From a virus (lineage: Duplodnaviria; Caudoviricetes), in the IMG/VR virus record IMGVR_UViG_3300011335_000532, positions 1 through 30,264 of that record: a stretch of 30,264 nt of DNA; one strand, given 5' to 3'. Below the pieces are notes generated by a model. It was not told where the DNA came from. It did no database searches and worked only from the letters and a program-made list of their open reading frames with translations. Positions 2,321 through 30,264 of the stretch are shown here, piece after piece (positions within the stretch are counted from its first letter, which is position 1; the number at the start of each line of letters is the position of its first letter). The translations under genes were made by a program, and so were the position numbers.

Positions 2321-5300
2321 ATGGCTATTGAAGCACAACTTGCCGATGGACGAATTCTAGAATTCCCAGACGGCACGGACCCGAGCGTAATTCAGGCAAC
2401 GGTTAAGCGGGTTGTAGCTTCAAGCCAGCCCACTACCTTTGGCGGGCAAGTCAAAGAGTTTGGCAAGGGTCTGCTCCCCGGTGCTGTAAACCTGCTCGAA
2501 AGCGCGGCTACCGGTGCTTCTGCCCTGTTACCTGAAGACCTTGAGAAGTCTGCCCGGGCGAAGATATCCTCAATTGCTAGCGCAGCCAAAGCTCCCTTGG
2601 CTGCCGCCCCCGGCTACGAAGACACCGTTGGCCGCAAGTTTGGTGAATCTGTGGGTTCTGTCCTACCTGTTTTGGGTATGGCGGCGCTTGGTCCTGTGGG
2701 TATTGCTGGCGCTGTGGCTACCGGCGTCGGTGCTGGTGCTGGTGAAGCGCGTACCCGGGCCGAAGAGGGGGGTGCTACAGCAGCCCAACGCGCAGAGGCT
2801 ACGGGCTATGGAGCCCTTGTGGGCTCCACTGAAGCCTTGCCCATCTTCCGAATTATTCAACGCCTTGGCGCTCCCGCAGCAAATGGGGCACTGGCATACA
2901 TACGCCGCGCTTTCGCTGCCGGTGGTGAGGAAGCCGCTCAGGAAGCTGCGTCCAATATTGCACAGAACCTGATTGCCAAAGGCGTCTACAAGCCCGATCA
3001 GGAAGTCATTGAGGGGGTAGGTGAGGCTGCGGGCTACGGCGGCGCTACGGGTGCGCTGGTGCAGGGTGTGCTTGACTTGGCTCTTGGACGCCGCGCCAAG
3101 GGCCCTACAACCCAACCGGGCGGGCCCACTGAAGCTGAGCAGCGCCTGAAAGCTGCCAAAGAGCAAGAGGCGATGGCCCGTGCGGATGCCCTTGCTAAGC
3201 AAGAGGAACAGAAAAACATACGGGATGCACAGGTCCGCCGATTTACCGGGGACCAAGGGGCGCTCTTCCCCGCTGCGGAAACTCCCAAACCCATGCTGCC
3301 CGAAAAGGATTTGCAGGGTAACGTCTTGCAACGTGCCGCGCCTGAAGCGCCTGCGCCATCACTCGCAGAGGACCGCACCGTAGCGCTGAATACGCAGGGT
3401 AAGCCTGTACCCAAACCGGGGTTTACCCGCGAAGAGGCAACAGCCAAGGGCGTTCCCGAACTCCCACTGGAGACAGCCCGCAAGGAAGAAGATGTAATCA
3501 CCGAACGTGGGGCGCTTAGCTTTGAGCTGGAGTCGCTCAGGGGTGATGCTTCCCCCGGAACCCGTGAACGCCGCGCTGAGATCAACGACCGCATATCTGA
3601 GCTTGACGTTGATCTGGCCCGCCGTCAAGAAGAGCGCGGCCCGCAGCTAGCTGCCAAGGGTGCCCCACAAGGGGAGTTGTTCGGCGCTGCGCCCCGGGCA
3701 CCTAGACCCCCAAAGGAAACTGCGCCAGAAGTTACAGCGCCTGTGGCCCAAGAAGGCCAGCTCGATATGGGTATCGATGCGCTCAAGGATTATGCAGAGC
3801 TTGTGCAAGAGCGCGAGATGCTGCGGGCGATTCCCAAAGAGCAGCTCACACCGGAGCTGCAAGCTTACATGCGCAAGATCGATCAGGATATCCGTGATCG
3901 TGTGCTGTATGACCTTGACCTTGCTCAGCAAAAGCGGGCAAAGGACATCGAAGCTGACAAAGGCAAAATCCGCGAGGAAGAGCTTGCTGCGCAGTCCGCG
4001 TTCAACCAACCACCCCCTGCTCCTGCTCCAGCACCCGCAACAGCACCCGCAACAGCACCCGCAACAGCACCCGCAACAGCACCCGCAACAGCACCAACGC
4101 CTGCGCCCGCAACAGCACCAACGCCTGCGCCTGCTCCTCAAGTTACACAGCCGCCAGTTCCTGAGCCCACGGTGCGCCAAGCACCCACGCTGCAAACCAT
4201 AGCGCCACAACTCGACCTCAACCTGCGTTCGCTGCTGGGCATTGGCCCTACGGCCAACCTATTCAAAACCGATGGGGGTATTGTTGGCAAGGACATTAGT
4301 GATCCAGCGCAGGCCGCTGAAGTCAAGACCAAACTGGAAGCGTACCTTGAGCGCCCCACGCTCAGCCCCAACATCGTCGAGCGGGTTGGTACCTTCTTGC
4401 AACGGCCCGAATTCCAAGGAGTTGAAAGTGGACGACCAGAACAACCAGCAAAAGCCCCAGCACCGCCCCCTGCCGCGCCGAGTGTGCCTAAGCAAGACAC
4501 TGAGCCCAGAGGAGGTGAGCCAAGCGTGGCAGTACCTAGTGAGCCTGCCGGAGCCCAGCCTGCTGAACCCGGAGCCGGACCTGCCCCCACCACCGGAGAA
4601 CCTCAAGGAGCTGTCGGACGGGGATTGGTTCTTGTTGAGCAACCTGCTGGCACGGGAGCAGTATCTGGCAAGCCAAAGTCTGCTCCAGTAAAGGGCCGCA
4701 AGATTGCTGGTAAGGCTGGGGCTTCGGAAGCCTCAAAGCCCATCAATAAAGCCATTGATGATCTCGAAGACTACTACCTTGACCCGGACACCAAAAAGGG
4801 GCAGGTGGTCCAGTTCGCCCGCAAGCTGCGCCGGGAGGGTTTGATTGATGCCGCATCAATGGGGGCCATTGAAGACATGTCCAAGGACCGGGACATGGGG
4901 GCCGAAGATGTTATCTCTGAGCTGCAATTCGCCCTGCAATACACCAAGGAGCAGATTGCCAAGGGTGAGCCGCTGACCATTGAGGGCGAGACCCGGATTC
5001 TGTCTGAAGGCGAGACCAAGCTTGTGGATGCGGGTCTGGCCCGACTGCCTGCGCCACAGGTTACCAAGCTTGAGCAGCACTACGGCAGCAAGCGCGATAG
5101 CGCCGAGTTCCTAACCAAGCTGCGCGAGGACGTATACAACTACGTCACCAAGGGTGCGAATGCGGTCGCCAAGTCCATCCGCAGCGCCATCAAAGCGGTT
5201 TCTGAAGGGGTGCTGGCTATCGGCATCATCTTCAACCCGGGCCTGACCGCAAGCCACTTCCAGTTCAACCTTCCCGAGACCATTCAGGCCACGCAAGAAG

Positions 5301-8300
5301 TACGAGCTGAAGTACCTGCCAATGCCAAAGGGTCAATGTCTGCCGAAGCGCAGAAGGTCTACGAGGCCATGGCCCCCGCCGCCAAGGAGTCTGGCAAGGG
5401 CTTCATCGTCGGTGACAAGCCCAACGGTAAGATGCATGCGTTCAAGGCTGATGGATCGCTGATCGTCAGTGCCAATACCCTGACCGGTAAGGATACCGGC
5501 GATGTGCTGGGCAAGTCCTCGCTGGAGGGTGGCCCCAAGATTACCCCTGCGGGTAAGTTCAAACTTGCAGTAGCTAGAAGCACAGAGTACGGTACCGTTT
5601 TCAGGCTTGTGGAGACTTACGATGGCACGGGCTATATCGCCATCCACTCGGTCTACTTGGGTGACCCAAAGGAGAAACGCGCTGAGCGTCTGGCCGCTGG
5701 TAAGGCTGAAGAAAGCCGCGTCACCTACGGCTGCTGGAACCTAGACAACGCAGTCATCAAGGACAAGCTAATACCCAACATTGCCGACCTCAATGGCGGC
5801 ATGATGTTTGTCATTCCTGACAACGACCCGAAGCTGGCGAAAGCGCTGACCACCCCCGGCACGGTCACTGTAGAGGTCAAGGTGCCCGTGGCATCGGGTG
5901 AGCCGTCCACCCGGGGGATGGAGGGTCGTGAAGAGCGTGGCGCTCCCCCTGAGAAGAAGGTCACCAAGGCCGAAGAACGCAAGTCTGTGCAACCCACCGC
6001 TGGCAAGGTTCAGCAAGACCTCGCCAGTCTTCAGGCCGATATCGCCAACGGCACCGGGCTGCTGGCTGGCCTGCTGCGCCGCCTGCTGAAGTCCGGCAAG
6101 GTCAGGCTTGAGGCCATATCACCCGATGGCGATGCCACCGTGGGGGGCGTGTACAACGGCGAGACCGTTGTGCTCTACGCTGCCGGTATCCGCAAGGGTG
6201 AGGCTATAGCCGTTGCGATCCACGAGGTGGGTGCCCACTTGGGCCTGAAGAACCTGCTGGGTGAGAAGCAGTACAAGGAACTGTCACAGCGCATCCTTGA
6301 CATGGCCGCCAGCAAGACCAGCTCCCCAGAGCGGACACTTGCACAACGTGCGCTTGGGCGCATCCCCAAAGAAGATATCGCCCGGGGTGAAGAGGTCTAT
6401 CGTGACGAGGCTCTGGCCTACTTTGCCGAAGAGCTGGTCAAAGCAGAGATATCGGGTGAGCTGGCCAAGACTGGTCCGCTGCGCCTCATGTACAACCGCA
6501 TCCGTGCGGCAGTGCAGGCTACGTTCAACCGGCTCTTCGGTACCAACTTTGGTGTGGGCACGTTCACCCCTGACCAGATCGGCTTCCTCATCAAAGGTGC
6601 GATGGGTGTCGAGGCGTTCACCGATACACGGGCCGGGTCACTGACTGAGACCCAGAAGAAGCTGAGCGTAGCTAAAGGGCAGGAGGAACCTGATCCCAAC
6701 ATCCGCTACTCCCGCACTATGCCGCAGGAGGACATTGACTACATCAACAAGCTGTCCGCTGCCTCACCTCTGCCACCTGAGCAGGAAGCCAGCGTCATCA
6801 AGCAAGGCTATGAGGGTGTCCGCAAAGCGCAAAAGGCTGCGGGGCTAGTGCCTTGGCTCAGGCAGCATCTTGCCGACAAGTACTCCACGGTTCTGTCAAA
6901 GACCAGTCAATACTTCTCGCAGGGTGTGCGTGACTCGTTTGGCAATCTCAACAACGAGGTGCTGCTGCGCCAAGCCGACGACCATGCCAAGGTGACCCAA
7001 GCCTTCTTGCACATGGGTGGCATCGAGATTGACAAAGATGGTTTGGTGAAAATCACCAAAGAGAAAGAGTCTGTAGTCAGTGTGTTCAAGGCTGTCATTG
7101 ACTTTGGCAAAACCAATAGCATGGACCCGCAGAAGTCCATGGAGTTCTTCAGCAAGCTGCTGGAGGGTAACCGCTTGTATGGGCTTGAGAAGCAAGGCTT
7201 CAAAGTGTCCATGACCCGGGAGCAGATGGCTGAGGCCAAGCGCATCCTTGACAACTCCCCTGAGGCCAAAGCCATACTTGATGACCTCAACATCATCCGG
7301 GAGCGGGCTATCAAGCTCATGGTGGCCACGGGGCGCATATCGCAGCAGCAAGCTGACGCATGGAACTCTGCCAAGGACTACGTGCCGTTCAACCGCATCT
7401 TCGATGAGGACGAAGGCACAGGCACCCCCTACGTCATCCGTGGCAAGGGTATTGCTGTGCTGCGCAACATCCCCAAGCTGGTCGGCTCGTATGGCCGCCC
7501 GGTGGAAAACGTGCTGGATGCCTTTGCCGAACGCATGGGTTACATGATCTCGGAGAGCCTGCGCAACCAAGCCTCTGTGAAAACGCTGGAGATCATGCGG
7601 CTTGGTGGGTACGCTGAGAAGGTGCCGTCACCGGACGCCACCAAAAACCCGGGTCTTGTGGTGCCTCGCCTGTACAAGAACGGTGAGCCGGTCTACTACG
7701 AGGTGCAGAACCCCTACGACCTAGCGGCGTTCCAGCAAGCCCCAGAGGTCACCAATGGGTTCATCAACGCCTTGGCGGCTGTATCCCGTGTGCTACGCCT
7801 GTCCATCACGGCCATGCCACCCTTTGCTGCCAAGCAGGTGCTCGATGACGCACAGCGGGCCATGTTCTACTCAGGCGTCGAGCGCCCTGTGGTTGTGGCA
7901 ATCAAGACCTTGTACAACTTCCCACGGATTTTCTTCGGCGAGTTGACTGGGCGCAAGTCGCCTGCGGTCCAGCAGATGGAGTCCTACGGTATCGTGGGTG
8001 ACTATGACTCCAACCTTGTGCGGCCCACTCAAGACATGCGGTATGAACTTGGTATCGACGCCCGCAGCACAGGCGCGAACATCATCCACTTCCTTGAGAA
8101 GATCACCAAGGCATCTGACCTTGCCGCTCGTTCAGCAGTGTTTGACGAAACTATGCGGGAGACAAAGGGTGATGCGCAGCTTGCACAGACCCGCGCCCGT
8201 GAGCTGATTAACTTCAGCCGCAGGGGTAGCAGCAGCACGATGCGCACCGCAACAAAGATAATCCCGTTCTTCAACGCCTATGCGCAGGGCATGGATGTGC

Positions 8301-9313
8301 TGTACCGCTCAGCCTCGGGCATCGACTCCTCCTCTGCCGCCGAGCGTAGCGCAGCCCGCAAGCTGTTCTACAGCCGCATGGGTATCATGATGGGGTTTGG
8401 GTTTATGTACGCCGCGATGATGTCGGGCGATGACGACTACGAAGGCACCATCGAAGAGGTGCGTGACAACAACTGGATATTCCCGGGCGGCTACAAGCTG
8501 CCGGTGCCAAAAGAGATTGGCTTCCTGTTCAAGTCCATCCCTGAGCGAATCATTGGGTACCTGAACCGCTACGGCACTGATGAAGAGCAAGCCGTGTCGG
8601 AAGCGTTGGGCAGCTTGCTCAAGGGTGCGCTTAGCGCGTACACCAGCCCCACTGCGGTGCCCAGCACGATCAAGCCATTCCTTGAGCACATAACCAACTA
8701 CTCGTTCTTCATGCAGCGTGAGTTGGTGCCGTCCTCCATGAAGGACCGCCCCGCAGGGCTACAGTACCTCTCAGATACCTCTGAGCTGGCCAAGCTGATG
8801 GGCAAGGCCGCTGATGTATCCCCCATCGTGGTCGACAACTACCTGCGCGGGCTGTTCGGTATGGCAGCATCTACTGGCTTGATGATGACCGACGCGGTGC
8901 TCAACCCCACCCGCCCTGACCGGCCACTCTACCAACTACCCTTTGCAAGCATTGTGCGGTACGACACCATTGGTGGGCGCGAGAAGGCTGAGTTCTATGA
9001 CCTGCGTGAGAAGGTCATGAAGGCCCGCAACGGGTACAACGCGCTACAGAAAACTGACCCTGCGGCAGCCGATGAGTTTGCTGAAAAGAACTACGCACTG
9101 ATCGACGCAGCGCCGGAAGTCAACCGCCTGCTGACTGAGCTATCCAACCTGCGCAAGGAGCGGGTGCTCTACGAGCAGGGCACTGCTGATGTGGTGGGGG
9201 AGATGAGCGGCACCGAGCGGCGGCAACTGATTGATGAAATCCGCAAGGAAGAGAAGTCAGTGCTGTCTGACGTCCGCCAGCTCAAGAAGCTCATCCGAGA
9301 CGAGCAGAAATAA
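2321..9313 (+). CDS. Giant polyvalent virion/ejection protein (2330 aa): Gly/Ala-rich N-terminus, Pro/Ala linker, YkuD-like L,D-transpeptidase domain, zincin metallopeptidase, LPD38-like C-terminus
   Basis: SD-like AAGGT upstream. FIVGDK...TPAGKF...AIHSV...RVTYGCWN (His1109, Cys1138). AIHEVGAH (His1301) followed by DEALAY. C-terminal LPVPKEIG...IKPFLEHITNYSFF...SPIVVDNYLRGLFG resembles LPD38 of polyvalent proteins (recognised from memory). Confidence 0.8.
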   Translation: MAIEAQLADGRILEFPDGTDPSVIQATVKRVVASSQPTTFGGQVKEFGKGLLPGAVNLLESAATGASALLPEDLEKSARAKISSIASAAKAPLAAAPGYEDTVGRKFGESVGSVLPVLGMAALGPVGIAGAVATGVGAGAGEARTRAEEGGATAAQRAEATGYGALVGSTEALPIFRIIQRLGAPAANGALAYIRRAFAAGGEEAAQEAASNIAQNLIAKGVYKPDQEVIEGVGEAAGYGGATGALVQGVLDLALGRRAKGPTTQPGGPTEAEQRLKAAKEQEAMARADALAKQEEQKNIRDAQVRRFTGDQGALFPAAETPKPMLPEKDLQGNVLQRAAPEAPAPSLAEDRTVALNTQGKPVPKPGFTREEATAKGVPELPLETARKEEDVITERGALSFELESLRGDASPGTRERRAEINDRISELDVDLARRQEERGPQLAAKGAPQGELFGAAPRAPRPPKETAPEVTAPVAQEGQLDMGIDALKDYAELVQEREMLRAIPKEQLTPELQAYMRKIDQDIRDRVLYDLDLAQQKRAKDIEADKGKIREEELAAQSAFNQPPPAPAPAPATAPATAPATAPATAPATAPTPAPATAPTPAPAPQVTQPPVPEPTVRQAPTLQTIAPQLDLNLRSLLGIGPTANLFKTDGGIVGKDISDPAQAAEVKTKLEAYLERPTLSPNIVERVGTFLQRPEFQGVESGRPEQPAKAPAPPPAAPSVPKQDTEPRGGEPSVAVPSEPAGAQPAEPGAGPAPTTGEPQGAVGRGLVLVEQPAGTGAVSGKPKSAPVKGRKIAGKAGASEASKPINKAIDDLEDYYLDPDTKKGQVVQFARKLRREGLIDAASMGAIEDMSKDRDMGAEDVISELQFALQYTKEQIAKGEPLTIEGETRILSEGETKLVDAGLARLPAPQVTKLEQHYGSKRDSAEFLTKLREDVYNYVTKGANAVAKSIRSAIKAVSEGVLAIGIIFNPGLTASHFQFNLPETIQATQEVRAEVPANAKGSMSAEAQKVYEAMAPAAKESGKGFIVGDKPNGKMHAFKADGSLIVSANTLTGKDTGDVLGKSSLEGGPKITPAGKFKLAVARSTEYGTVFRLVETYDGTGYIAIHSVYLGDPKEKRAERLAAGKAEESRVTYGCWNLDNAVIKDKLIPNIADLNGGMMFVIPDNDPKLAKALTTPGTVTVEVKVPVASGEPSTRGMEGREERGAPPEKKVTKAEERKSVQPTAGKVQQDLASLQADIANGTGLLAGLLRRLLKSGKVRLEAISPDGDATVGGVYNGETVVLYAAGIRKGEAIAVAIHEVGAHLGLKNLLGEKQYKELSQRILDMAASKTSSPERTLAQRALGRIPKEDIARGEEVYRDEALAYFAEELVKAEISGELAKTGPLRLMYNRIRAAVQATFNRLFGTNFGVGTFTPDQIGFLIKGAMGVEAFTDTRAGSLTETQKKLSVAKGQEEPDPNIRYSRTMPQEDIDYINKLSAASPLPPEQEASVIKQGYEGVRKAQKAAGLVPWLRQHLADKYSTVLSKTSQYFSQGVRDSFGNLNNEVLLRQADDHAKVTQAFLHMGGIEIDKDGLVKITKEKESVVSVFKAVIDFGKTNSMDPQKSMEFFSKLLEGNRLYGLEKQGFKVSMTREQMAEAKRILDNSPEAKAILDDLNIIRERAIKLMVATGRISQQQADAWNSAKDYVPFNRIFDEDEGTGTPYVIRGKGIAVLRNIPKLVGSYGRPVENVLDAFAERMGYMISESLRNQASVKTLEIMRLGGYAEKVPSPDATKNPGLVVPRLYKNGEPVYYEVQNPYDLAAFQQAPEVTNGFINALAAVSRVLRLSITAMPPFAAKQVLDDAQRAMFYSGVERPVVVAIKTLYNFPRIFFGELTGRKSPAVQQMESYGIVGDYDSNLVRPTQDMRYELGIDARSTGANIIHFLEKITKASDLAARSAVFDETMRETKGDAQLAQTRARELINFSRRGSSSTMRTATKIIPFFNAYAQGMDVLYRSASGIDSSSAAERSAARKLFYSRMGIMMGFGFMYAAMMSGDDDYEGTIEEVRDNNWIFPGGYKLPVPKEIGFLFKSIPERIIGYLNRYGTDEEQAVSEALGSLLKGALSAYTSPTAVPSTIKPFLEHITNYSFFMQRELVPSSMKDRPAGLQYLSDTSELAKLMGKAADVSPIVVDNYLRGLFGMAASTGLMMTDAVLNPTRPDRPLYQLPFASIVRYDTIGGREKAEFYDLREKVMKARNGYNALQKTDPAAADEFAEKNYALIDAAPEVNRLLTELSNLRKERVLYEQGTADVVGEMSGTERRQLIDEIRKEEKSVLSDVRQLKKLIRDEQK
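4029..4131 (+). repeat. In-frame tandem repeat: 12-bp unit CAGCACCCGCAA x~5.5, then a 24-bp unit x2 (PATA / PATAPTPA linker)
   Basis: Read directly: perfect 12-mers at 4029, 4041, 4053, 4065, 4077; CCGCAACAGCACCAACGCCTGCGC at 4083 and 4107. Confidence 0.95.
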
Positions 9314-9595: not shown

Positions 9596-12395
9596 TGTCG
9601 AACAGACGGTTAACTGGGTCTTCCATCATCAGCACGTTGACCGGGGTAGCTGCCATGAGCGTACCCTTGGCCATGCGCTTCTTGGTGGACTCGATCAACA
9701 CCCCCTCGTTGCGCAAGGTTGCTATCGTTTCGTGGTAGCTGACTTGGTTCTTGGCACACCACTCTTTGAACTTCTTTTGCACAAGGAACACACGCTTGGT
9801 GTCGGGCTCATACCGGATGAGTAGCTCACCTTTGGGTTCACGTATCGGTGGGGTTGGCAGCCCGTTGGCTGCGGCGTTGTCGTGGACTATCAAGATGTTA
9901 TTGATGTTGGCCGCAATGTAAGCGCCCAGATAGGTTGTGCTGTCGGTAGACCCAGCGGCTTTGACCTCGCCTTTTCCTACACGTAGGAAAGCCACCAGCC
10001 AGTTGAAGATGCGCTTGACATCAATGTCGTGCAAGCCCAGCTCAGCGGAGATCAACCCACCCGTGATCGCCAGAGCCCCGATGGCAGACCAGAATCGCTC
10101 CCGCTGCCCAAGTCCAGCAGCAGCATCCAGCCGAAGCTGTACGTCACGCAGCACATCCAGCACATCAGGCAGGTTCTCCACCACATGACGGATGAAAATA
10201 TCACCAGCAATTCCATAGTTCCCCTGCAACTTTCCGAACAATGTGTCCGTGTATTCTTTGCTGTAGTTGGTGTCCCTGCTGATCTTCAGCTCAATGATCC
10301 TCATCATCTCACCCTCAGGAAACTCCTTCAGGCTGTACAGCTTGTCATACAAGCTGCTGTTCGATGATGTGATGGCAAGGAGCCGCCAGAACGTATGGTT
10401 GACCCGCTCCTCGTTGCGCTGTGACTCCATGCGGTTCTTGCCCCGCCCTTGCGTGACGGCGTACGCCAGATGCGATACCGTCTCCTCCTTCATGTTGGTG
10501 ATCTCGTCGATGGTTGCTGGCAGGTTGTTGAGCACACCGAAGCGATGAATCGTTGCGTTGTAGGTATCCTCACTCTGCATCAGCAGGTCGAACGGGTGCC
10601 CCCAGATGCTGTTGATCGCCATCTGCACGGTGGACTTGCCTGTGCCAGAACCCGAACTCATCAGGTTGACGATGCCACCACGGATTTGTGTGAACGGCAT
10701 CAGCACGGAACCGAAGCCCAGCAAGAAGGCAAACGCCTGTGCTTCCATGCCCTTGTTGTTGTAGAAGTTGACCACCGACTTCCACTCACCCATCTCACCC
10801 TTCTTGGTCAGCAATGAGCAGGTGTGCAAAATTGAGTTTGCTGGGGGGCTGTACTTGACCCCGGTGGGGGTGATCTCGCGGTCACCCAAGATAAACGTCT
10901 TGTCGTCAGTCCAGCCAAACTGGCTGCGCACTTTTTCTGCTTGTCCCATACTCTGCAATTCCTTTACCCAGCGGGCTATGTAGACCATCAACTCATCCAA
11001 GCCCTTGTTCATCATCGGCATCCCCTTTGCTGCTACAGCATCACGGAGCCGGTCCTTTGACATCACACTTGCAAGCGGTATAGAGAACTCGCGCACACCA
11101 TCTTTTGGCAGGTGCAGCCGAGCCCACAAGACCTCGCCCAAGGACGGGTCGTCCATGCGCTTGACAATGTAGAAGTCGTTTTCATAGATCAGCTTGTCCT
11201 GATCGTCGGCCTTGTTCGGGTCAGCCCTGCGGTACACCCCACCGTACTTACCCCGGAAGAACGGGAATGGGTATGCAGGTATGTTGTATGTGCGGACATC
11301 CTTTGACTCGGAGTCCACCTGCACAACGGTGTTGTCCTCTTCAGTGGCTTCAGCTATCTCTTTGCCCAGCACAATCGGGGAGCCAAACTTGCCCTTGTGC
11401 TTGCAGTCCCCACACAGCCCGTCCCGCAGCGAGTCAAACATGGCGCAGGTGTATGGCCCCTTGGTCAGCTCAGCCTTGCGCTCAGTCTCGCCCCGGTCAT
11501 ACGCTGGGTGCTGGTTGGATATCTCATGGATAGCTTCGTCACGGTCCACGCAGTGCTGGGCAATGGACAGGCCCGCCCGCCATATCGGCTCTTCGGTTGT
11601 GGCTTGCTCTGCTGTGATCTTGTTGATCTGAGCGCACCCATCGACCTTCAGTTCAATGATCTTCTTGAACCTGTAGGTGTTGTTGTTCATCAGCGCCCGG
11701 GTGGTGCTGTCCATCTCCGCTGACTTCAGATGCTCAGGGATATCAAAGGGCAAAGCGGACGGTGCCTTCTCGGCCGCTGCCGGGGCACCAAGGGCCTGCG
11801 CGAACTCGATGAGGGTTACCTTGCCATCACCGCAGATGTATTCCACGGGCAGCGGGGCGCTGGGGTTCTTGTAGTTGGTGGTCTCTGGCACCCGCAGGAT
11901 GCGGGCAGCATCGGTTGTGCATGAGGGGTCGGCACGGAGGCCGCGCTCCACACAGACTTCCTTCAAACGCTTGGCTACAGGCTGCCATGTAGCCTTGTCA
12001 ATTGTCTCGGGCAGCACCCAGTACACATGCACCCCGTTGCCGGAGTTGATGCAGATGGGGCTTGGTAGGTTCAGGTCTGTACAGAACTGACCCAAAGAAG
12101 CCATGGCTTCGTCACGGTTGCGGTAGTCCTTGCCGGGGCCGCAATCCAGATCAAGCCAAAAGCATTTAACTCGCTGTGCGTTGTCACCCAATCTGCGCTG
12201 CGGCTGCATCGCTGGGTCAAATGAGAACATTGCAAAGTATGTATCTGCCTGAGCAGCATGGAGGCCATCGACCTCCAACATCAGTGTCGCGGTGTCATCA
12301 ACAAAGCGAGTACGTAACTTGCCTTGCTTGATGCCAACTGCGCAATAGGTCCCGCTATCTGCAAGCACCGCTTGCAGGAACTCGGTAACGGTCAT
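9561..12395 (-). CDS. Primase-helicase (N-terminal AEP-type primase, Cys cluster, DUF927-like region, P-loop helicase)
   Basis: FWLDLDCG and SGNGVHVYW AEP motifs, RILRVP, C-x9-CGDC cluster, Walker A SGSGTGKST, Walker B ATIDE. Confidence 0.85.
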   Translation of the reverse strand: MTVTEFLQAVLADSGTYCAVGIKQGKLRTRFVDDTATLMLEVDGLHAAQADTYFAMFSFDPAMQPQRRLGDNAQRVKCFWLDLDCGPGKDYRNRDEAMASLGQFCTDLNLPSPICINSGNGVHVYWVLPETIDKATWQPVAKRLKEVCVERGLRADPSCTTDAARILRVPETTNYKNPSAPLPVEYICGDGKVTLIEFAQALGAPAAAEKAPSALPFDIPEHLKSAEMDSTTRALMNNNTYRFKKIIELKVDGCAQINKITAEQATTEEPIWRAGLSIAQHCVDRDEAIHEISNQHPAYDRGETERKAELTKGPYTCAMFDSLRDGLCGDCKHKGKFGSPIVLGKEIAEATEEDNTVVQVDSESKDVRTYNIPAYPFPFFRGKYGGVYRRADPNKADDQDKLIYENDFYIVKRMDDPSLGEVLWARLHLPKDGVREFSIPLASVMSKDRLRDAVAAKGMPMMNKGLDELMVYIARWVKELQSMGQAEKVRSQFGWTDDKTFILGDREITPTGVKYSPPANSILHTCSLLTKKGEMGEWKSVVNFYNNKGMEAQAFAFLLGFGSVLMPFTQIRGGIVNLMSSGSGTGKSTVQMAINSIWGHPFDLLMQSEDTYNATIHRFGVLNNLPATIDEITNMKEETVSHLAYAVTQGRGKNRMESQRNEERVNHTFWRLLAITSSNSSLYDKLYSLKEFPEGEMMRIIELKISRDTNYSKEYTDTLFGKLQGNYGIAGDIFIRHVVENLPDVLDVLRDVQLRLDAAAGLGQRERFWSAIGALAITGGLISAELGLHDIDVKRIFNWLVAFLRVGKGEVKAAGSTDSTTYLGAYIAANINNILIVHDNAAANGLPTPPIREPKGELLIRYEPDTKRVFLVQKKFKEWCAKNQVSYHETIATLRNEGVLIESTKKRMAKGTLMAATPVNVLMMEDPVNRLFDIDDIVAKAPQD
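9973..9990. promoter_or_regulatory. Palindromic operator-like site TTTCCTAC-AC-GTAGGAAA inside the primase CDS
   Basis: Exact reverse complement of the 18-mer at 29791-29808. Confidence 0.6.
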
Positions 12396-17010: not shown

Positions 17011-18896
17011 CAACAATCTCCGTAACTCTTACCCATACCGCTTTCGCAGTTGACTGGCAAACCTTCGGCCCATGACGGAACCCAGCGCATACAGGATTCC
17101 ACGTAGGCCCGCGCTTCTTCTGCCTCAGCCTCTCGGGCAACAATCCCGATGGCGTCATGCACGGTCAAGACAACCTTGTACCGCTTGGCAATCTTTAACA
17201 TTTGATCGCCAATGATACAGCGGGCTACGGCCTGTGTAAAGTTCTCCACCACCTTGCCACCGTAAATCTTTGTCTGGCCTGCACGGGTGTCGTACACGAA
17301 CTGCCGCTTGCCATTCTCGTCGGCCATCTCCCGCAGGCCCTTGTAGTGGATGTACAGCCCGTTGGGCAGCTTGATGCCGTTGGGCTCAATGGTCAGCAAA
17401 CCGTTGCGGCACAGCTTCATGGTCTGACCCCGCACCATGCATCTCAAGGCTTCATGGGACTTCTGCCATAGCTCAGGGATCATGGGGTACGCCGCCCGGT
17501 AGGTGGTGATGATTCGCTTGGCTTCTTCCTCAGTCACATCCGTGCCGAACGTCTTGAGCTGGGCTTTGAACTTGGGGCCACCCATGCCGTAGCCTGCGCC
17601 CAAAATTGTGGTCTTGCCAACGAACCGCTCGGGGGCTGTGATCTCTTCGGTGGGCTTGTGGTAGATGGCTGATGCCATGATCTTGTACACATCCTCACCA
17701 TTGGCAAACGCCTGCACCAGATCGTCCTGCTCTGCCTCCCATGCTAAGGTCCGCGCCTCGATCTGTGAGGAGTCAGCGTCGATGAACACGTAGCCCTCCG
17801 GGGCTATGATGGCCTTCTTGAGCTTGCCTGCGTTGGCCCCACGGCTGGGCAGGTTCTGCAAGTTGATGGAGTCCGACCCTCCCCAGCGCCCTGTGTGGGC
17901 GGCGTAGTATTTCAATGGCACGGGGAACTTGCCCCGGGCTGCCAGCCCGATGAACCGCTGGGTCCGGGTCTCCTCCAGCGTGGACTTGGTGCCTATCCTT
18001 GCGGCTGCCAGCGCCTGCACCCGGATGTCCTCATGCTCCAGCAACTTCTTGAACGCCTCATCGCTTTTGGCAAAGGCAAACGTCTGCTTGCCCGTGGTCA
18101 TGCTGATCTTCTTGGGTGGCTCTACCCCAAGCGTTTTGAGCATCTCGGCAAACTTGGGGTTGCTCATGAGCACTGTGCGCACCTCGGCCTTCATCTCTTC
18201 GTTGCCGATGATTTGCTTGACGGCCAAGTCCTTGTGCCCGATGGCTTGCAGCGCCCCGACCAGATGCGCCTGCTTGGCTGCGGATACTTCCTCCAGATGC
18301 TTTTCAAGCAACCTACTGTCCAGCTCCAGCACGGGGTGAGTGAACATCCGCAGGGTCAGGTCGATGAGCTTGAGTTCGCTCAAGGGGAAGTTCAGCGCCA
18401 TCATCTTGTTGAAGATGTAGCGGGTCAGTTGAACGTCATTGGTGCAGTAGCGCCCGTAGGCATAAAGCTGCTCAGCGGTAAATGACTCGCGTCTGTAGTT
18501 GATGAAGTTATGCACCTCGGTACCCTTCTCACCCACACCGTAGCGCTCGGCCATGGCCTTGAGTGAGCCGCCAGCTTCCACCCCATGCAGCGCCCGCCCC
18601 ATGCTCAGCGTGTCAAGCCAGCCCTTGGGGGTAACGTCATAGCGCCATGCCAAGATCGCGCCATCGAACATGGTGTTGTGGGCCAGCACAAACGATGTCT
18701 TCCAAGGCAGGCTACGCAGATGCTGCGCGATGAAATCATCAGAGCCTGTCACCCAGTTGGGAGGGCCATCGTCTATCTTGTAGGCAAACCCGATAACCTC
18801 AAACTGCTCCGAGCGAACGTACTCCTCGGTGCTGATCTTCGTCAGGCTGAAATGCGGGTCGTAGTAGGTTTCAAAGTCAATTGTGATGATGTTCAT
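17010..18896 (-). CDS. polA: Family A DNA polymerase with 3'-5' exonuclease domain (Leu at the 762-equivalent position)
   Basis: IDFET (Exo I), AHNTMFD (Exo II), YCTND (Exo III), HTGRWGG, NLQNLP, DSSQIEAR (motif A), KTTILGAGYG (motif B), TVHD (motif C). ATG 18896 overlaps the upstream stop. Confidence 0.95.
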   Translation of the reverse strand: MNIITIDFETYYDPHFSLTKISTEEYVRSEQFEVIGFAYKIDDGPPNWVTGSDDFIAQHLRSLPWKTSFVLAHNTMFDGAILAWRYDVTPKGWLDTLSMGRALHGVEAGGSLKAMAERYGVGEKGTEVHNFINYRRESFTAEQLYAYGRYCTNDVQLTRYIFNKMMALNFPLSELKLIDLTLRMFTHPVLELDSRLLEKHLEEVSAAKQAHLVGALQAIGHKDLAVKQIIGNEEMKAEVRTVLMSNPKFAEMLKTLGVEPPKKISMTTGKQTFAFAKSDEAFKKLLEHEDIRVQALAAARIGTKSTLEETRTQRFIGLAARGKFPVPLKYYAAHTGRWGGSDSINLQNLPSRGANAGKLKKAIIAPEGYVFIDADSSQIEARTLAWEAEQDDLVQAFANGEDVYKIMASAIYHKPTEEITAPERFVGKTTILGAGYGMGGPKFKAQLKTFGTDVTEEEAKRIITTYRAAYPMIPELWQKSHEALRCMVRGQTMKLCRNGLLTIEPNGIKLPNGLYIHYKGLREMADENGKRQFVYDTRAGQTKIYGGKVVENFTQAVARCIIGDQMLKIAKRYKVVLTVHDAIGIVAREAEAEEARAYVESCMRWVPSWAEGLPVNCESGMGKSYGDC

Positions 18897-25387: not shown

Positions 25388-25403
25388 TTTCCTACGTGTA
25401 GGA
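25388..25403. promoter_or_regulatory. Palindromic operator-like site TTTCCTAC-GT-GTAGGA
   Basis: Intergenic, about 25 nt upstream of the 25363 start. Confidence 0.7.
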
Positions 25404-25411
25404 GAAAATTT

Positions 25412-27282: not shown

Positions 27283-27297
27283 TTTCCTACGGGTAGG
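27283..27297. promoter_or_regulatory. Palindromic site TTTCCTAC-GG-GTAGG overlapping the peptidase RBS
   Basis: Fills the 21-nt gap between the stop at 27300 and the ATG at 27278; its AGGA is the SD. Confidence 0.7.
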
Positions 27298-27299
27298 GA

Positions 27300-28619
27300 T
27301 TATTCGGGTGTGGGCTCGTCGTCCTCGGACTCATCGTCCTTGGGCATCTCGTCCTCGTCGGCGTAGTACTCGCCGCTATCCTCATGGAGGTACACATCAC
27401 GTATGAGGTGGAACTCATCGTCGTCTACGCAGCGCACGATGCGGTCATCGTCAATGTGGTACCAATCACCGTCAATCTCAACGGCGTCGTCCGTGTGCTC
27501 ATACTCACCGTTGCGCAACTGCACGATATCGTTGTTGTCGAGGTAGCTCTCGTGGTAATACTCGCTCTGTGAGTCGACGTACACGGCGCAATGCCCATGG
27601 ACGTAGTACTGATTGCCGTTGCGGCCATAGGCATACACATAGCTGTTCTCGCAGCAGGATTCGCAGATATGATCTTCCTCGTATGCGCCGACCCAGTAGC
27701 CGTCACCGTCACGCACACGGTAACCGCATTCGCTGCAATCATCACCCCCACGCTCATCGGCTGAGCCATCGGTGTTGCCGCAGGTGAACTCACCGTCAGT
27801 GCGAGTGATGACTAGGTTGGCACCGTCACGAACCACATCCTTGTAGTCACCGTCAAGGTACGGTGCGATGAACCCGCAGTCGAACTCGTCGGTGGCTATG
27901 ACCTTAAGCCGCCGCCCGACCCATGAGTTAGCGCGCTGGTAGCCCTGCTCTTTCAGCCACGCTTCGAGCTGCTCGTCGGCAGGGCTGTAGCCCGATGACT
28001 TCTTGTAGGTACGCACGAATATCTTGACGCCATTGGTCTCGTTGACCAGAGCACGGCCCACGGTGTCGTTGGCCTCGATGCGCACGGCCATGGCCCAGCC
28101 AAGCGCTGGGCTGTACGCCTCATACGGGTGACGCATATCACCTGTCATGTCGGCTATGCCGTCCGCATCCCATTTCATGCAAGAGCCGGGGCCACGGGCC
28201 AAGTGGTAGATCATCTCGGCAGTGGTGTTCACGATCTTGAAATGCGCCCCATCGGATTGAGCCAGCGCAACAATGTCACGGATGGCCTCGTCGGGCAGCA
28301 CACTGAAGTGCTGCCGCAGGTACTTGCCAAGGGTGGTGACCACTTGCCTGTTGGCGATGCCTGCCCGCTCATCACGGGTGTAGGCCAGCTTGGTGTAGTC
28401 GCCCGCTGCGTTGTCGGCCATGTGCGGCCACTGAAGCATCAGGTGCTGCCAATTGTCAGGGCGGGCCATCTCGATGGCCTTGATGACGAACTTGTGTATG
28501 TTGGCGGACTTAACCTCTCGGTTGAACCACTCGCGGTGGTTGCACACGATCCAGTGCGCTTGGTCCATCACACGCTTCATGTCGTAGGGGTTGTATGCGG
28601 GGTCGGTTGTGTAAGGCAT
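27300..28619 (-). CDS. Uncharacterised protein with SCM/GRAL/RTY/PYLD core, zinc ribbon and acidic repetitive tail
   Basis: 439-aa ORF; GPGSCM, GRALV, FVRTY, APYLD, CSEC...CESCC. Confidence 0.75.
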   Translation of the reverse strand: MPYTTDPAYNPYDMKRVMDQAHWIVCNHREWFNREVKSANIHKFVIKAIEMARPDNWQHLMLQWPHMADNAAGDYTKLAYTRDERAGIANRQVVTTLGKYLRQHFSVLPDEAIRDIVALAQSDGAHFKIVNTTAEMIYHLARGPGSCMKWDADGIADMTGDMRHPYEAYSPALGWAMAVRIEANDTVGRALVNETNGVKIFVRTYKKSSGYSPADEQLEAWLKEQGYQRANSWVGRRLKVIATDEFDCGFIAPYLDGDYKDVVRDGANLVITRTDGEFTCGNTDGSADERGGDDCSECGYRVRDGDGYWVGAYEEDHICESCCENSYVYAYGRNGNQYYVHGHCAVYVDSQSEYYHESYLDNNDIVQLRNGEYEHTDDAVEIDGDWYHIDDDRIVRCVDDDEFHLIRDVYLHEDSGEYYADEDEMPKDDESEDDEPTPE

Positions 28620-28643
28620 AGCTCTTGTCTTTCAATTGCGAAT

Positions 28644-28665
28644 ACCCCCTGAGTCGGCAGGGGGT
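28644..28665. other. 8-bp GC-rich hairpin in the leader of the 28619 gene
   Basis: ACCCCCTG-AGTCGG-CAGGGGGT; no clear U-tract on the - strand. Confidence 0.55.
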
Positions 28666-28675
28666 GTACCGTGTT

Positions 28676-28691
28676 TTTCCTACGGGTAGGA
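28676..28691. promoter_or_regulatory. Palindromic operator-like site TTTCCTAC-GG-GTAGGA
   Basis: Immediately after the stop at 28693, upstream of the 28619 gene. Confidence 0.7.
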
Positions 28692-28692
28692 G

Positions 28693-28893
28693 TTACCGGG
28701 GTGGGTAGCTCAGGTTGTCTTTGATCCATGTCACCAGCAGGTGAGCATCGAGCGCGGCATCTTTGATGGGCTCAAAGTATTCGGGGTACGACTCGATGAC
28801 GCGGTCGTTCTCATGGCTTGCATCCATGGCTATGCCAGCCAGCAGGGTGTGCAGGTGCGTCAGTGCGTCATGCAGGTTGTCGGGGTTCTTCAT
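28693..28893 (-). CDS. Hypothetical protein
   Basis: ATG 28893 with SD AAGGAG and ATGA overlap. Confidence 0.7.
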   Translation of the reverse strand: MKNPDNLHDALTHLHTLLAGIAMDASHENDRVIESYPEYFEPIKDAALDAHLLVTWIKDNLSYPPR

Positions 28894-29072
28894 TTGATTT
28901 CTCCTTCGGTTAAATACAGTGCGCTCCAATCCCACATCGGGTCTTCCGTGTCTGGGCCATTGATCTCGTCGATGTACGCCTTGGCCTTGGCTTCATCGGT
29001 GAACACTACGCCCGTGGCGTGGCCCTCGTAATACGAGTCATCGCAGGGGCGGCAAACAATCCAGCATTTCAT
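28890..29072 (-). CDS. Small acidic hypothetical protein
   Basis: 60-aa ORF with ATGA overlaps and SD GAGGA. Confidence 0.7.
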   Translation of the reverse strand: MKCWIVCRPCDDSYYEGHATGVVFTDEAKAKAYIDEINGPDTEDPMWDWSALYLTEGEIK

Positions 29073-29554
29073 GTTGTCCTCTTAGGGTTGAGTTGCTTCA
29101 GGGTGTCGGGGTTGGTGATGAGCCGGTTGCGAAGGTTTTGCTGGGCTATGGCTCTACACACACGGCAGTAACGCTGCTCACGAGTACCTCCTTGCCTACG
29201 TTTGACGGTAGTTACGTATGTGTTGGTGTCATTCCACTTATGCCCAGCGCGGCAATGGGTTCGTCGCTCCCGCCCAAGGCGCATGTTTTCAGCATGGCTT
29301 ACGGCTTGTAAGTGCGCGGGGTTGATACACAGGCGGGTGTTGCATATGTGGTCAACCTCCATGTCTTGAGATAGCGCTTGGCCAGTAATTAACTGATACA
29401 TGGCCCTATGAACAGTGGTTTGTTTCCCCTTGTACACAACGACCCCATACCCAGTACCCGTGTGGGAAGCCCCTTGCCATATCCAACAATCCCCGTTTGG
29501 GGTAGTCAACTCTTTGAGGGACTCGATTGTGTGTGGCTTGTTACGTGTTCGCAT
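29069..29554 (-). mobile_element. HNH homing endonuclease (HNH_3-type with C-terminal Cys/His domain)
   Basis: CWIWQGA, GYG, VHR, VDHICNTRLCINPAHL, EN, THCRAGH...YCRVC; visibly more AT-rich than neighbours. Confidence 0.85.
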
Positions 29555-29747
29555 ACTTGTTCAGTCCTTTAAGTAACTCCGGATCGGAGACCATAATGTA
29601 ATTGGATTTTGACACGGGCACAACGGTGTGTTTGCGGGACTTGGCAAGGGCTTCACCGCAGTCCATGCAGGTGCGGTATCCGAGGGCGGCGCGTCGGTAG
29701 TCAACGTGCCCACCCCAGCAGTGGGTGCAGAGGAGTTTGTGGCTCAT
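29541..29747 (-). CDS. DksA/TraR-like C4 zinc-finger protein
   Basis: CTHC...RR..LGYRTCMDC; ATG 29747 after GAAAGG. Confidence 0.65.
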   Translation of the reverse strand: MSHKLLCTHCWGGHVDYRRAALGYRTCMDCGEALAKSRKHTVVPVSKSNYIMVSDPELLKGLNKYANT

Positions 29748-29790
29748 GGTTGCCTTTCTCAGTTGCGAGTTTTGCTTGGTGTAGTTGGTG

Positions 29791-29808
29791 TTTCCTACGT
29801 GTAGGAAA
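29791..29808. promoter_or_regulatory. Perfect palindromic site TTTCCTAC-GT-GTAGGAAA
   Basis: 8-bp arms; upstream of the first - strand gene. Confidence 0.75.
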
Positions 29809-29811
29809 GTG

Positions 29812-30264
29812 ATGCGGTATGCACCCAAAAGGGGTCTGCGATGCAGTTCCCTTCAGGCTGACTACAGCGTGTGTGCGCAGGGAGTGGCTACCCTGCGAAT
29901 GGTCTACTCGTTTATGGCCTTGCGTTTTGTCCTACGATAGCGTTCGTCGTTCGTGCATATCCCGGTTTATCCGCCTTCATTTCTTCAGGCGGCATTCGCT
30001 TTCGCTCATCCCGGTTCACGTTCCCTGCGGGTGTCGTTCATGGAATGCTTCATAGTTATCATCCGGCGTAGGGCAATGCCCTGCGTGTGTGTAGTCGCCT
30101 TATCTTCGCTATGTCATAGACCATGCCCTGTCCGCATTAGGTTTGTTGCCGGTTTCCCAGCAGAGCAAACCACGCAGTTAAGTAGGTTGTCGATACTTTG
30201 CATATGCTGTTACCACATATGCACCCGACTGGCTACGGGACGCCTATTCGCTGAGGGAGATTCT
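29812..30264 (-). ncRNA. Candidate large structured non-coding RNA (may extend past the window edge)
   Basis: No credible ORF; at least five local hairpins and several 6-8 bp long-range complementarities; GAAA tetraloop and A-rich linkers on the - strand. Confidence 0.5.

Follow-up and report, generated by a model that had tools for sequence, protein, structure and literature searches.

A gene-free stretch at the head of a phage early region

What does a phage carry in some 450 nucleotides without a gene, at the very point where its early genes begin? The window, i.e., the whole stretch of DNA analysed here (30,264 nucleotides), is an entire linear virus record, which is 48% complete. Its minus strand encodes a primase/helicase, a helicase, an exonuclease and a DNA polymerase, and its plus strand encodes large virion-type proteins. 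A protein of 2330 amino acids encoded at 2321-9313 shows a weak PHROG match to virion RNA polymerase (E 3e-4) and also matches large PHROG proteins of unknown function. Judged by the DNA polymerase, the nearest cultured phages are Pseudomonas KPP25-like and Rhizobium RHph_TM phages (35-36%). At least half of the sampled words were found in DNA runs from riverine, freshwater and sediment samples and in two further runs coded 'organism A' (8 of 24 rows in all), and four of these eight runs are possible sources of the window itself. Among the sequencing runs listed, no RNA data set contains the window phage.

The gene-free stretch forms the end of the record, upstream of the minus-strand early genes. 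The original prediction described this region (29812-30264) as a large, pseudoknotted non-coding RNA that heads the early region and is read from the minus strand. Two scanned ORFs lie over the region, neither of which has a PHROG or Pfam match, and relatives differ by insertions and deletions of arbitrary length; the stretch can thus be regarded as non-coding, as had been proposed. The preference for the minus strand was also borne out: this strand folds better than its shuffled controls (z of -2.21, 2 of 100 shuffles as good), whereas the plus strand does not (z of +0.17).

On the minus strand, the RNA is followed by a Shine-Dalgarno-like GAAAGG (29758-29753) and the first early gene (start at 29747; site and gene together 29541-29758), which encodes a Cys/His-rich protein of 68 amino acids. 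The second gene of the operon encodes a 161-amino acid HNH_3 protein. No minus-strand terminator was found in 28500-30264 and no tRNA gene in the window. No U-tract separates the RNA from the first gene, into which it continues, and it is therefore physically an early leader.

A DNA palindrome is located at 29791-29808, and its 16-bp copies occur five times in the window compared to 0.03 expected matches (9974-9989, 25389-25404, 27284-27299, 28677-28692 and 29792-29807). A repeated palindrome of its own kind is also present in 39 of 42 homolog loci, often at the tips of RNA arms, beside boxA or just past the last hairpin. These palindromes are likely operators; it is conceivable that two copies flanking the RNA could pair as RNA.

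A large RNA family absent from Rfam

Membership in the family was defined by a search pattern together with a paired 4-bp stem, which resulted in 62 records. Three records with less than 300 nucleotides downstream were dropped and the rest were collapsed at 95% identity, giving 43 non-redundant members including the window. All three matches of a 21-mer in metagenome contigs were true homologs, and further pattern searches yielded 4 of 14, 49 of 65 and, in genome contigs, one of two loci; one further pattern gave five homologs among the 120 matches listed. The stem filter removed 16 of the 65 loci and one of the two, and the eight of these failures whose loci were read completely proved to be fortuitous matches in unrelated surroundings. 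As the search patterns were taken from the 5' junction and hairpin C, members without these parts could not be found. The single member from genome contigs, L260, is full and lies on a 9-kb contig of a metagenome-assembled genome labelled Alphaproteobacteria; this contig is likely a binned phage fragment with an unreliable host call.

Other routes did not lead to homologs. An exact 24-mer had no match in viral contigs, blastn of the region and of homolog leaders against GenBank phages returned only two chance matches of 27-32 nucleotides and then none, 27 loci of the first gene contained no RNA homolog, and no relatives of the 439-amino acid neighbouring protein were found. Patterns based on group II introns and on arm E hit 4 and 25 loci, respectively, none of which was a homolog, and model R1 had no match in the cultured relatives KPP25 and RHph_TM3_14A. 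Five long member records represent phages of 60-74 kb, whose DNA polymerases are 56-60% identical to that of the window, and the RNA locus is present as a single copy in each of them.

In agreement with the earlier view that the RNA fits no known family, an Rfam search at the gathering threshold gave no match. In E-value mode, neither the window region nor 11 homolog loci matched GOLLD or ROOL. No description of the family was found in the literature searched, which comprised mostly openly readable papers and, for the motifs of the PMC5737381 supplement, Rfam only. The locus represents a well-supported large RNA family that is absent from Rfam and undescribed in the literature searched.

Promoter, boxA and the missing 5' part

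The 5' boundary originally assigned to the RNA proved to be wrong. The record ends inside the RNA, the match of model R1 being cut at its 5' end, and the RNA starts about 185 nucleotides further upstream than the record end. Contigs identical to the window extend past this point; the contig from run X1 adds 121 nucleotides, which align to the junction of the homolog L060. Aligned to L060, the window phage beyond the record end has a promoter, a boxA-like site and unchanged 5' junction strands. The boxA-like site carries one mismatch (L060 2363-2374, changes at 2364 and 2372, read off the differences to L060). The window may itself derive from runs X1 and X2, so that these contigs extend its sequence without lending independent support. 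The full leader of the window phage comprises about 700 nucleotides, of which the gene-free stretch is the rear two-thirds, and the leaders of the family are 397 to 839 nucleotides long (median 616, 36 measured). The original prediction had also named a terminal repeat or origin as an alternative to an RNA; the region is, however, internal in the complete genome G003, which has terminal repeats.

A TTGAC(A/G)-TAnnnT promoter is found upstream in 40 of 42 homologs. A boxA with at most one mismatch to GYUCUUUAAMAA is present in 36 of the 42, 29 of which match exactly, compared to 0.11 expected in shuffles, and the remaining six members have a degenerate boxA. The motif is mostly located 52-84 nucleotides behind the estimated start and is usually preceded by a hairpin, as judged by eye. 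The 5' junction and hairpin C follow in every member, 47-98 nucleotides behind boxA. In four of five near-complete member genomes, the copy in the RNA leader is the only exact boxA of the genome. The E. coli boxA consensus is given as UGCUCUUUAACA in the available part of PMC13753749. The member L254 shares 23 of 25 nucleotides with the E. coli 16S leader over boxA and its flank, counted from boxA on, and this identity ends before boxC. A search for the boxA flank in plasmids gave no host indication.

In strains of the window phage from runs X2 and X11, 122 nucleotides of the 5' part are replaced by 141 other letters, and a strain from run X7 has a flank resembling an arm of L213, L234 and L249. 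The alternative segments of X2, X7 and X11 are located between boxA and the junction (L060:2358-2481). These replacements suggest, at the level of sequence comparison, that RNA modules are exchanged between phages.

Anatomy of the fold

On the minus strand, to which all features below refer, boxA is followed by a three-way junction, hairpin C, hairpin D, a multibranch domain and two 3' hairpins, after which come the ribosome-binding site and the variable first gene. The three-way junction is built from P1 (CGCC/GGCG), a CU-stem-AG hairpin, the variable arm P2 and the junction strand GAAUA. Its 3' strands lie at 30241-30264 (R1 match of 47.5 bits, cut at 5') and comprise the end of arm P2, GAAUA (30249-30245) and the P1 strand GGCG (30244-30241). 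The 5' half of the junction is located beyond the record end, and the P1 and P2 pairs are present in 34 homologs. Arm P2 is expanded to about 260 nucleotides or more in L208, L210, L246 and L248.

Hairpin C (30223-30240) has a 4-bp stem (30239-30236 with 30227-30224) and a nearly invariant loop of eight nucleotides, UAGYCAGU. Three stem pairs are intact in 43 of 43 members with four pair types each and reach G statistics of 59-84, whereas the null does not exceed 47; both features were partly selected, as the search pattern included the loop and membership required a paired stem. The loop motif (30225-30237) recurs near the 3' end (29854-29868) as GUAGYCAG in the window and L060. Hairpin D is present in the window in a short form with a GUAA-containing loop (30199-30223), with two compensatory changes and one wobble relative to L060. 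This short form is found in 4 of 43 members and a long form in 36 of 43, which contains a UGGUGUA/GAUAG internal loop and an AGUA/GAA motif.

The multibranch domain (29931-30186) is closed by the nested long-range helices P5 (30186-30182 with 29935-29931) and P6 (30175-30172 with 29943-29940), whose strands are about 250 nucleotides apart and which flank a conserved YUAAMU/UAUC internal loop. Arm E (30140-30171) corresponds to the GAAA-loop hairpin of the original prediction, which is indeed present (30171-30140); it has an asymmetric internal loop, 74-85% of its cells are paired, and changes occur on both sides (25 sequences). The flanks of arm E, UGCUCU...AACAA, resemble a boxA interrupted by a hairpin, and this form of the arm is seen in 18 of 43 members; this likeness may be due to chance.

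Arm F (30027-30135) is variable. Its closing helix GCGG/CCGC is 100% paired, with double changes at three of four pairs, and its inner helices CAUGG/CCAUG, CAUAG/CUAUG, GGCG/CGCC and the 30070-30082 hairpin show double changes relative to L060. Arm G (29952-30020) consists of CGUG/CACG, an AA/GAUAUG loop and CCGG/CCGG, with double changes at four of four outer pairs; it contains a 40-nucleotide insert, absent from L060 in alignment A1, which forms the CCGCCU/AGGCGG hairpin. Among the six A1 sequences, the hairpin CGCAGGG/CCCUGCG (29876-29897) is shared with L060 only. The two 3' hairpins (29811-29854; 29854-29827 and 29825-29811), which have covarying pairs in the family alignment, end the folded region. 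No U-tract follows, and only 2 of 43 members have a run of five U within the last 110 nucleotides. Neither a helix closing the whole RNA nor a conserved alternative sequestering the Shine-Dalgarno sequence was found.

The arms are optional across the family, and the core is kept in the shortest members. The arms are rich in what we take to be GNRA loops as well as receptor-like and loop-E-like motifs. In L070, L201, L206, L220, L230 and L097, arms D-H are partly or entirely missing; these members are natural deletion forms, of which L070 may be an assembly artefact.

Covariation and the pseudoknot question

The large minus-strand structure is conserved, with strong covariation in homologs, and this central part of the original prediction stands. 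Pairs were scored by a G-test with average-product correction against a tree-based null (20 replicates, maximum 47.0). Four pairs lie above every null value and one ties, all of them in hairpin C and the junction hairpin; a pair of the long-range P5 and a P2 pair come next with E of about 0.1. The evidence from hairpin C is partly circular, whereas no selection was made on P5, P6, F or G. An anchored count, which covers the 31 of 43 members parsed by patterns, found P5 paired in 31 of 31 at four positions and P6 in 29-31 of 31 at three positions, with three pair types at the variable one. In alignment A3, 97% of the P5/P6 cells are paired. Independent alignments of 34 and 25 sequences have 94.1% and 86.6% of their cells paired, respectively, compared to 77.0% and 69.7% in shuffled controls (0 of 500 shuffles as good) and 28-47% in slid controls, over which the structure is favoured, having been derived from the same sequences. 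RNAalifold recovered P5 and P6 unaided from the window and L060. Whole-member folding gave modest z values of -0.5 to -3.7 in 13 of 14 members and -8.3 in one, and the minus-equivalent strand folds better in 14 of 14. Taken together, a nested fold of junction, hairpin C and multibranch domain is supported by covariation.

The complements from which a pseudoknot had been proposed were largely read correctly: checked letter by letter, seven of eight are perfect Watson-Crick as written, and the eighth, the hairpin at 30067-30085, is perfect only with a G-T pair on the plus strand and has a C-A mismatch on the minus-strand RNA. The pseudoknot topology itself was not confirmed. No crossing helix is found among the covarying pairs, and the four long-range helices, the 5' strands of which all lie in arm F, fail in homologs: in five close homologs, 3-5 of 8, 3-4 of 6, 2-5 of 7 (GACUACA/UGUAGUC) and 0-6 of 6 pairs are kept. 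For two of the four, AUAGCG/CGCUAU and CCUACG/CGUAGG, the 3' strand is also claimed by P6 and P5, respectively, and it is these covarying helices that use CGCUAU and CGUAGG; CCUACG/CGUAGG is still able to pair in L060 and L260.

The 8-bp match AUGGUCUA/UAGACCAU is completed by two 3' positions, and precisely these differ from L060; AUGGUCUA is located within an insert absent from L060. Perfect long-range complements number 16 compared to 12.0 for 6-mers (P 0.17), 8 compared to 2.8 for 7-mers (P 0.011) and 3 compared to 0.68 per shuffle for 8-mers (P 0.038). This enrichment is slight, so that little can be concluded from a single 8-mer. An 8-bp contact confined to the window is possible. No conserved complement was found for five conserved unpaired segments. 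A pseudoknot between the D loop and the YAUCG segment was considered and rejected, as P5 and P6 covary with this segment and the D loop does not. The RNA also has two perfect complements within the HNH gene (30212-30223 with 29341-29352, 12 nucleotides; 30084-30094 with 29154-29164, 11 nucleotides), which were dismissed as chance, the longer one being lost in L060 because stem D differs.

Possible functions of the leader RNA

We favour, at just short of an even chance, the reading that the leader contains an accessory RNA payload, which is protected and folded by means of host Nus antitermination in the manner of rRNA and CRISPR arrays. The RNA would be made as the first product of infection from an early σ70-type promoter, and boxA would load the host Nus/SuhB antitermination complex, thereby shielding the long untranslated RNA from Rho and helping it to fold. 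Once folded, the payload would most probably bind host proteins as a scaffold or decoy, and cleavage in the vicinity of the two 3' hairpins would release it from the early mRNA. According to the available parts of PMC10250234 and PMC13753749, assembly of the rrn antitermination complex both requires boxA and needs no more than boxA; this complex shields rRNA and CRISPR transcripts from Rho (PMC13753749, same parts) and has been proposed to be a folding chaperone (PMC8632103, available part). As boxA alone suffices, a fold of more than 500 nucleotides is not needed to build the complex, and an untranslated RNA of 600 nucleotides would itself need it. Nus loading and protection from Rho are likely by analogy with the established rrn and CRISPR biology; we further infer that the RNA may be released from the mRNA and may act in trans by binding proteins. 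A role as a scaffold or decoy for proteins is suggested by the optional, exchangeable and motif-rich arms and by the fact that the RNA would be made ahead of all phage proteins.

Sister phages provide a comparison. Twenty loci of the first gene were viewed, 15 of which have an early promoter with a leader of about 65-115 nucleotides, and none of these 15 short leaders contains a boxA (about six lineages, by eye). The family model had no match in five sister records, three of them complete; the sister DNA polymerases are 50-51% identical to that of the window. Since sisters without the long RNA also lack boxA, the presence of boxA goes with the long RNA and not with the operon, in a comparison in which the sisters form a more distant clade, perhaps with other hosts, and the co-occurrence of boxA and RNA amounts to few independent contrasts. 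Some features weigh against the payload. Without a terminator or a closing helix, a free RNA requires a processing step; the first downstream gene varies; boxA is degenerate in six of 42 members; the folding z values of whole members are modest; and the core always lies close behind boxA, an arrangement just as compatible with a cis element.

Possible as well, yet less probable, is that the whole leader is a cis antitermination platform, the junction and hairpin of which stay on the RNA polymerase in a put- or EAR-like manner. It would carry transcription through the early/replication operon of about 20 kb, and the other arms would tune or stabilise it. The position at the head of the operon, the single copy per genome, the missing terminator, the fixed spacing of 47-98 nucleotides between boxA and junction and the core kept in the shortest members all fit such a platform. 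Five member genomes contain no NusG-family gene, so no such phage protein does the antitermination there, and HK022 put demonstrates that a nascent RNA alone can antiterminate (PMC8632103, available part). However, boxA alone is enough for the rrn complex, the sisters express a similar operon without boxA or RNA, and put comprises about 65 nucleotides compared to 400-840 here. Furthermore, terminator-like sites are about as frequent as expected in the window (21 compared to 19.6 expected, with four weak ones on the early strand) and show no enrichment in the member G003 (18 compared to 15.2), and they are commoner in the RNA-less genome G010 (20 compared to 9.7). The payload reading is ranked above the cis platform because of the sufficiency of boxA, the sister comparison and the lack of enrichment of terminators.

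It is improbable that the leader is a device at the level of the mRNA, which shields the early polycistronic message from decay, times translation of the first genes or senses a host ligand, with boxA merely getting the long untranslated part transcribed. In favour of this reading, the RNA passes directly into the first gene, the last hairpin is closely followed by ribosome-binding sites, and many invariant unpaired bases could form a pocket. On the other hand, there is neither a conserved terminator nor a conserved alternative that sequesters the Shine-Dalgarno sequence, the first gene is not conserved, and a single 5' hairpin would suffice for mRNA stability.

A ribozyme or group II intron derivative, for instance a circularly permuted one, that processes the early transcript is very unlikely: a weak Rfam match to group-II-D1D4-6 (30188-30230, 19.4 bits, gathering 49, E 0.003) and the GNRA loops, receptor-like and loop-E-like motifs speak for it, but the match rests on the short hairpin D (4 of 43 members) and is absent in 11 homolog loci, no known small ribozyme model matches, and D5/D6 is found neither in the record (RF00029: 0) nor in full-length homolog loci nor upstream in homologs, where a circularly permuted intron has it (PMC8637638, available part). 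Hardly any weight falls on a DNA-level structure (origin, genome end or entry signal) or a lineage-specific pseudoknotted RNA, since the operator-like palindromes in and around the RNA and the possible window-only AUGGUCUA/UAGACCAU contact are set against a strand-specific fold with G-U pairs and GNRA loops, an upstream promoter and boxA, the internal position in G003, and unpaired segments and covarying pairs that provide no crossing helix.

Comparison with known systems and implications

Like the boxB-boxA-boxC leader of rrn operons (Nus/SuhB/S4), the phage leader has a boxA about 50-85 nucleotides behind a σ70 promoter, usually, as judged by eye, a hairpin before it and a long untranslated structured RNA after it; unlike in rrn, the payload has no Rfam match, neither a boxC at the spacing of 18-19 nucleotides nor a leader-trailer helix was seen and the transcript continues into protein genes. 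Sites of the rrn type bind NusB-S10 and confer elongation that is resistant to Rho. The boxA preceding CRISPR arrays and suhB is a related known arrangement. The T7/T3 early region may also carry a boxA, for which the literature searched offered no confirmation. In lambda nut/N and HK022 put, too, an RNA signal able to modify host RNA polymerase heads an early phage transcript; the phage boxA described here is, in contrast, rrn-like, and the RNA is about ten times longer than put.

With GOLLD and ROOL, which the original prediction had cited as precedents, the RNA shares its large size (400-840 nucleotides here), ornate structure, phage location and the combination of variable and conserved domains (PMC12286853, available part). 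The likeness does not extend much beyond size, however: neither model matches, the window contains no tRNA gene, no pseudoknot is supported, the RNA lacks a terminator of its own, and it is an early leader behind boxA. Typical GOLLD and ROOL RNAs have several conserved pseudoknots, often occur near tRNA genes and are abundant as free RNAs that assemble into homo-oligomeric cages. One hairpin resembles subdomain IC of group II intron D1, a weak local match of 43 nucleotides far below gathering; in contrast to these introns, in which D5 carries the catalytic triad and D6 the branch A, no D5/D6, splice-site boundaries or reverse transcriptase neighbour were seen. Unlike HEARO/OMEGA-type RNAs, the family has no conserved adjacent IscB-type nuclease gene, the first gene being variable.

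A gene-free stretch of about 450 nucleotides is also found in a cultured distant relative, Rhizobium phage RHph_TM3_14A (MN988472.1, about 17730-18205; L263:7730-8205). It folds with a z of -2.3, contains a boxA-like GCUCUUUGACA and two copies of GUGAAUAGG, ends at a ribosome-binding site and has no R1 match; it is possibly an analogous leader in a tractable phage.

It is conceivable, though rather doubtful, that an entire clade of abundant freshwater phages borrows the antitermination and chaperone machine of host rRNA to build, before anything else, a modular RNA with a tertiary fold, whose arms are swapped between phages in the manner of accessory early genes and which acts in trans as a protein-free agent of host takeover or anti-defence and is possibly catalytic. 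With dozens of natural variants, deletion forms and sister phages as negative controls, the family makes it testable what large phage RNAs do, and also whether the rrn antitermination complex shields or chaperones RNAs beyond rRNA and CRISPR arrays. If the RNA does act in trans, it would be a tool for phage takeover of the host that works without translation.
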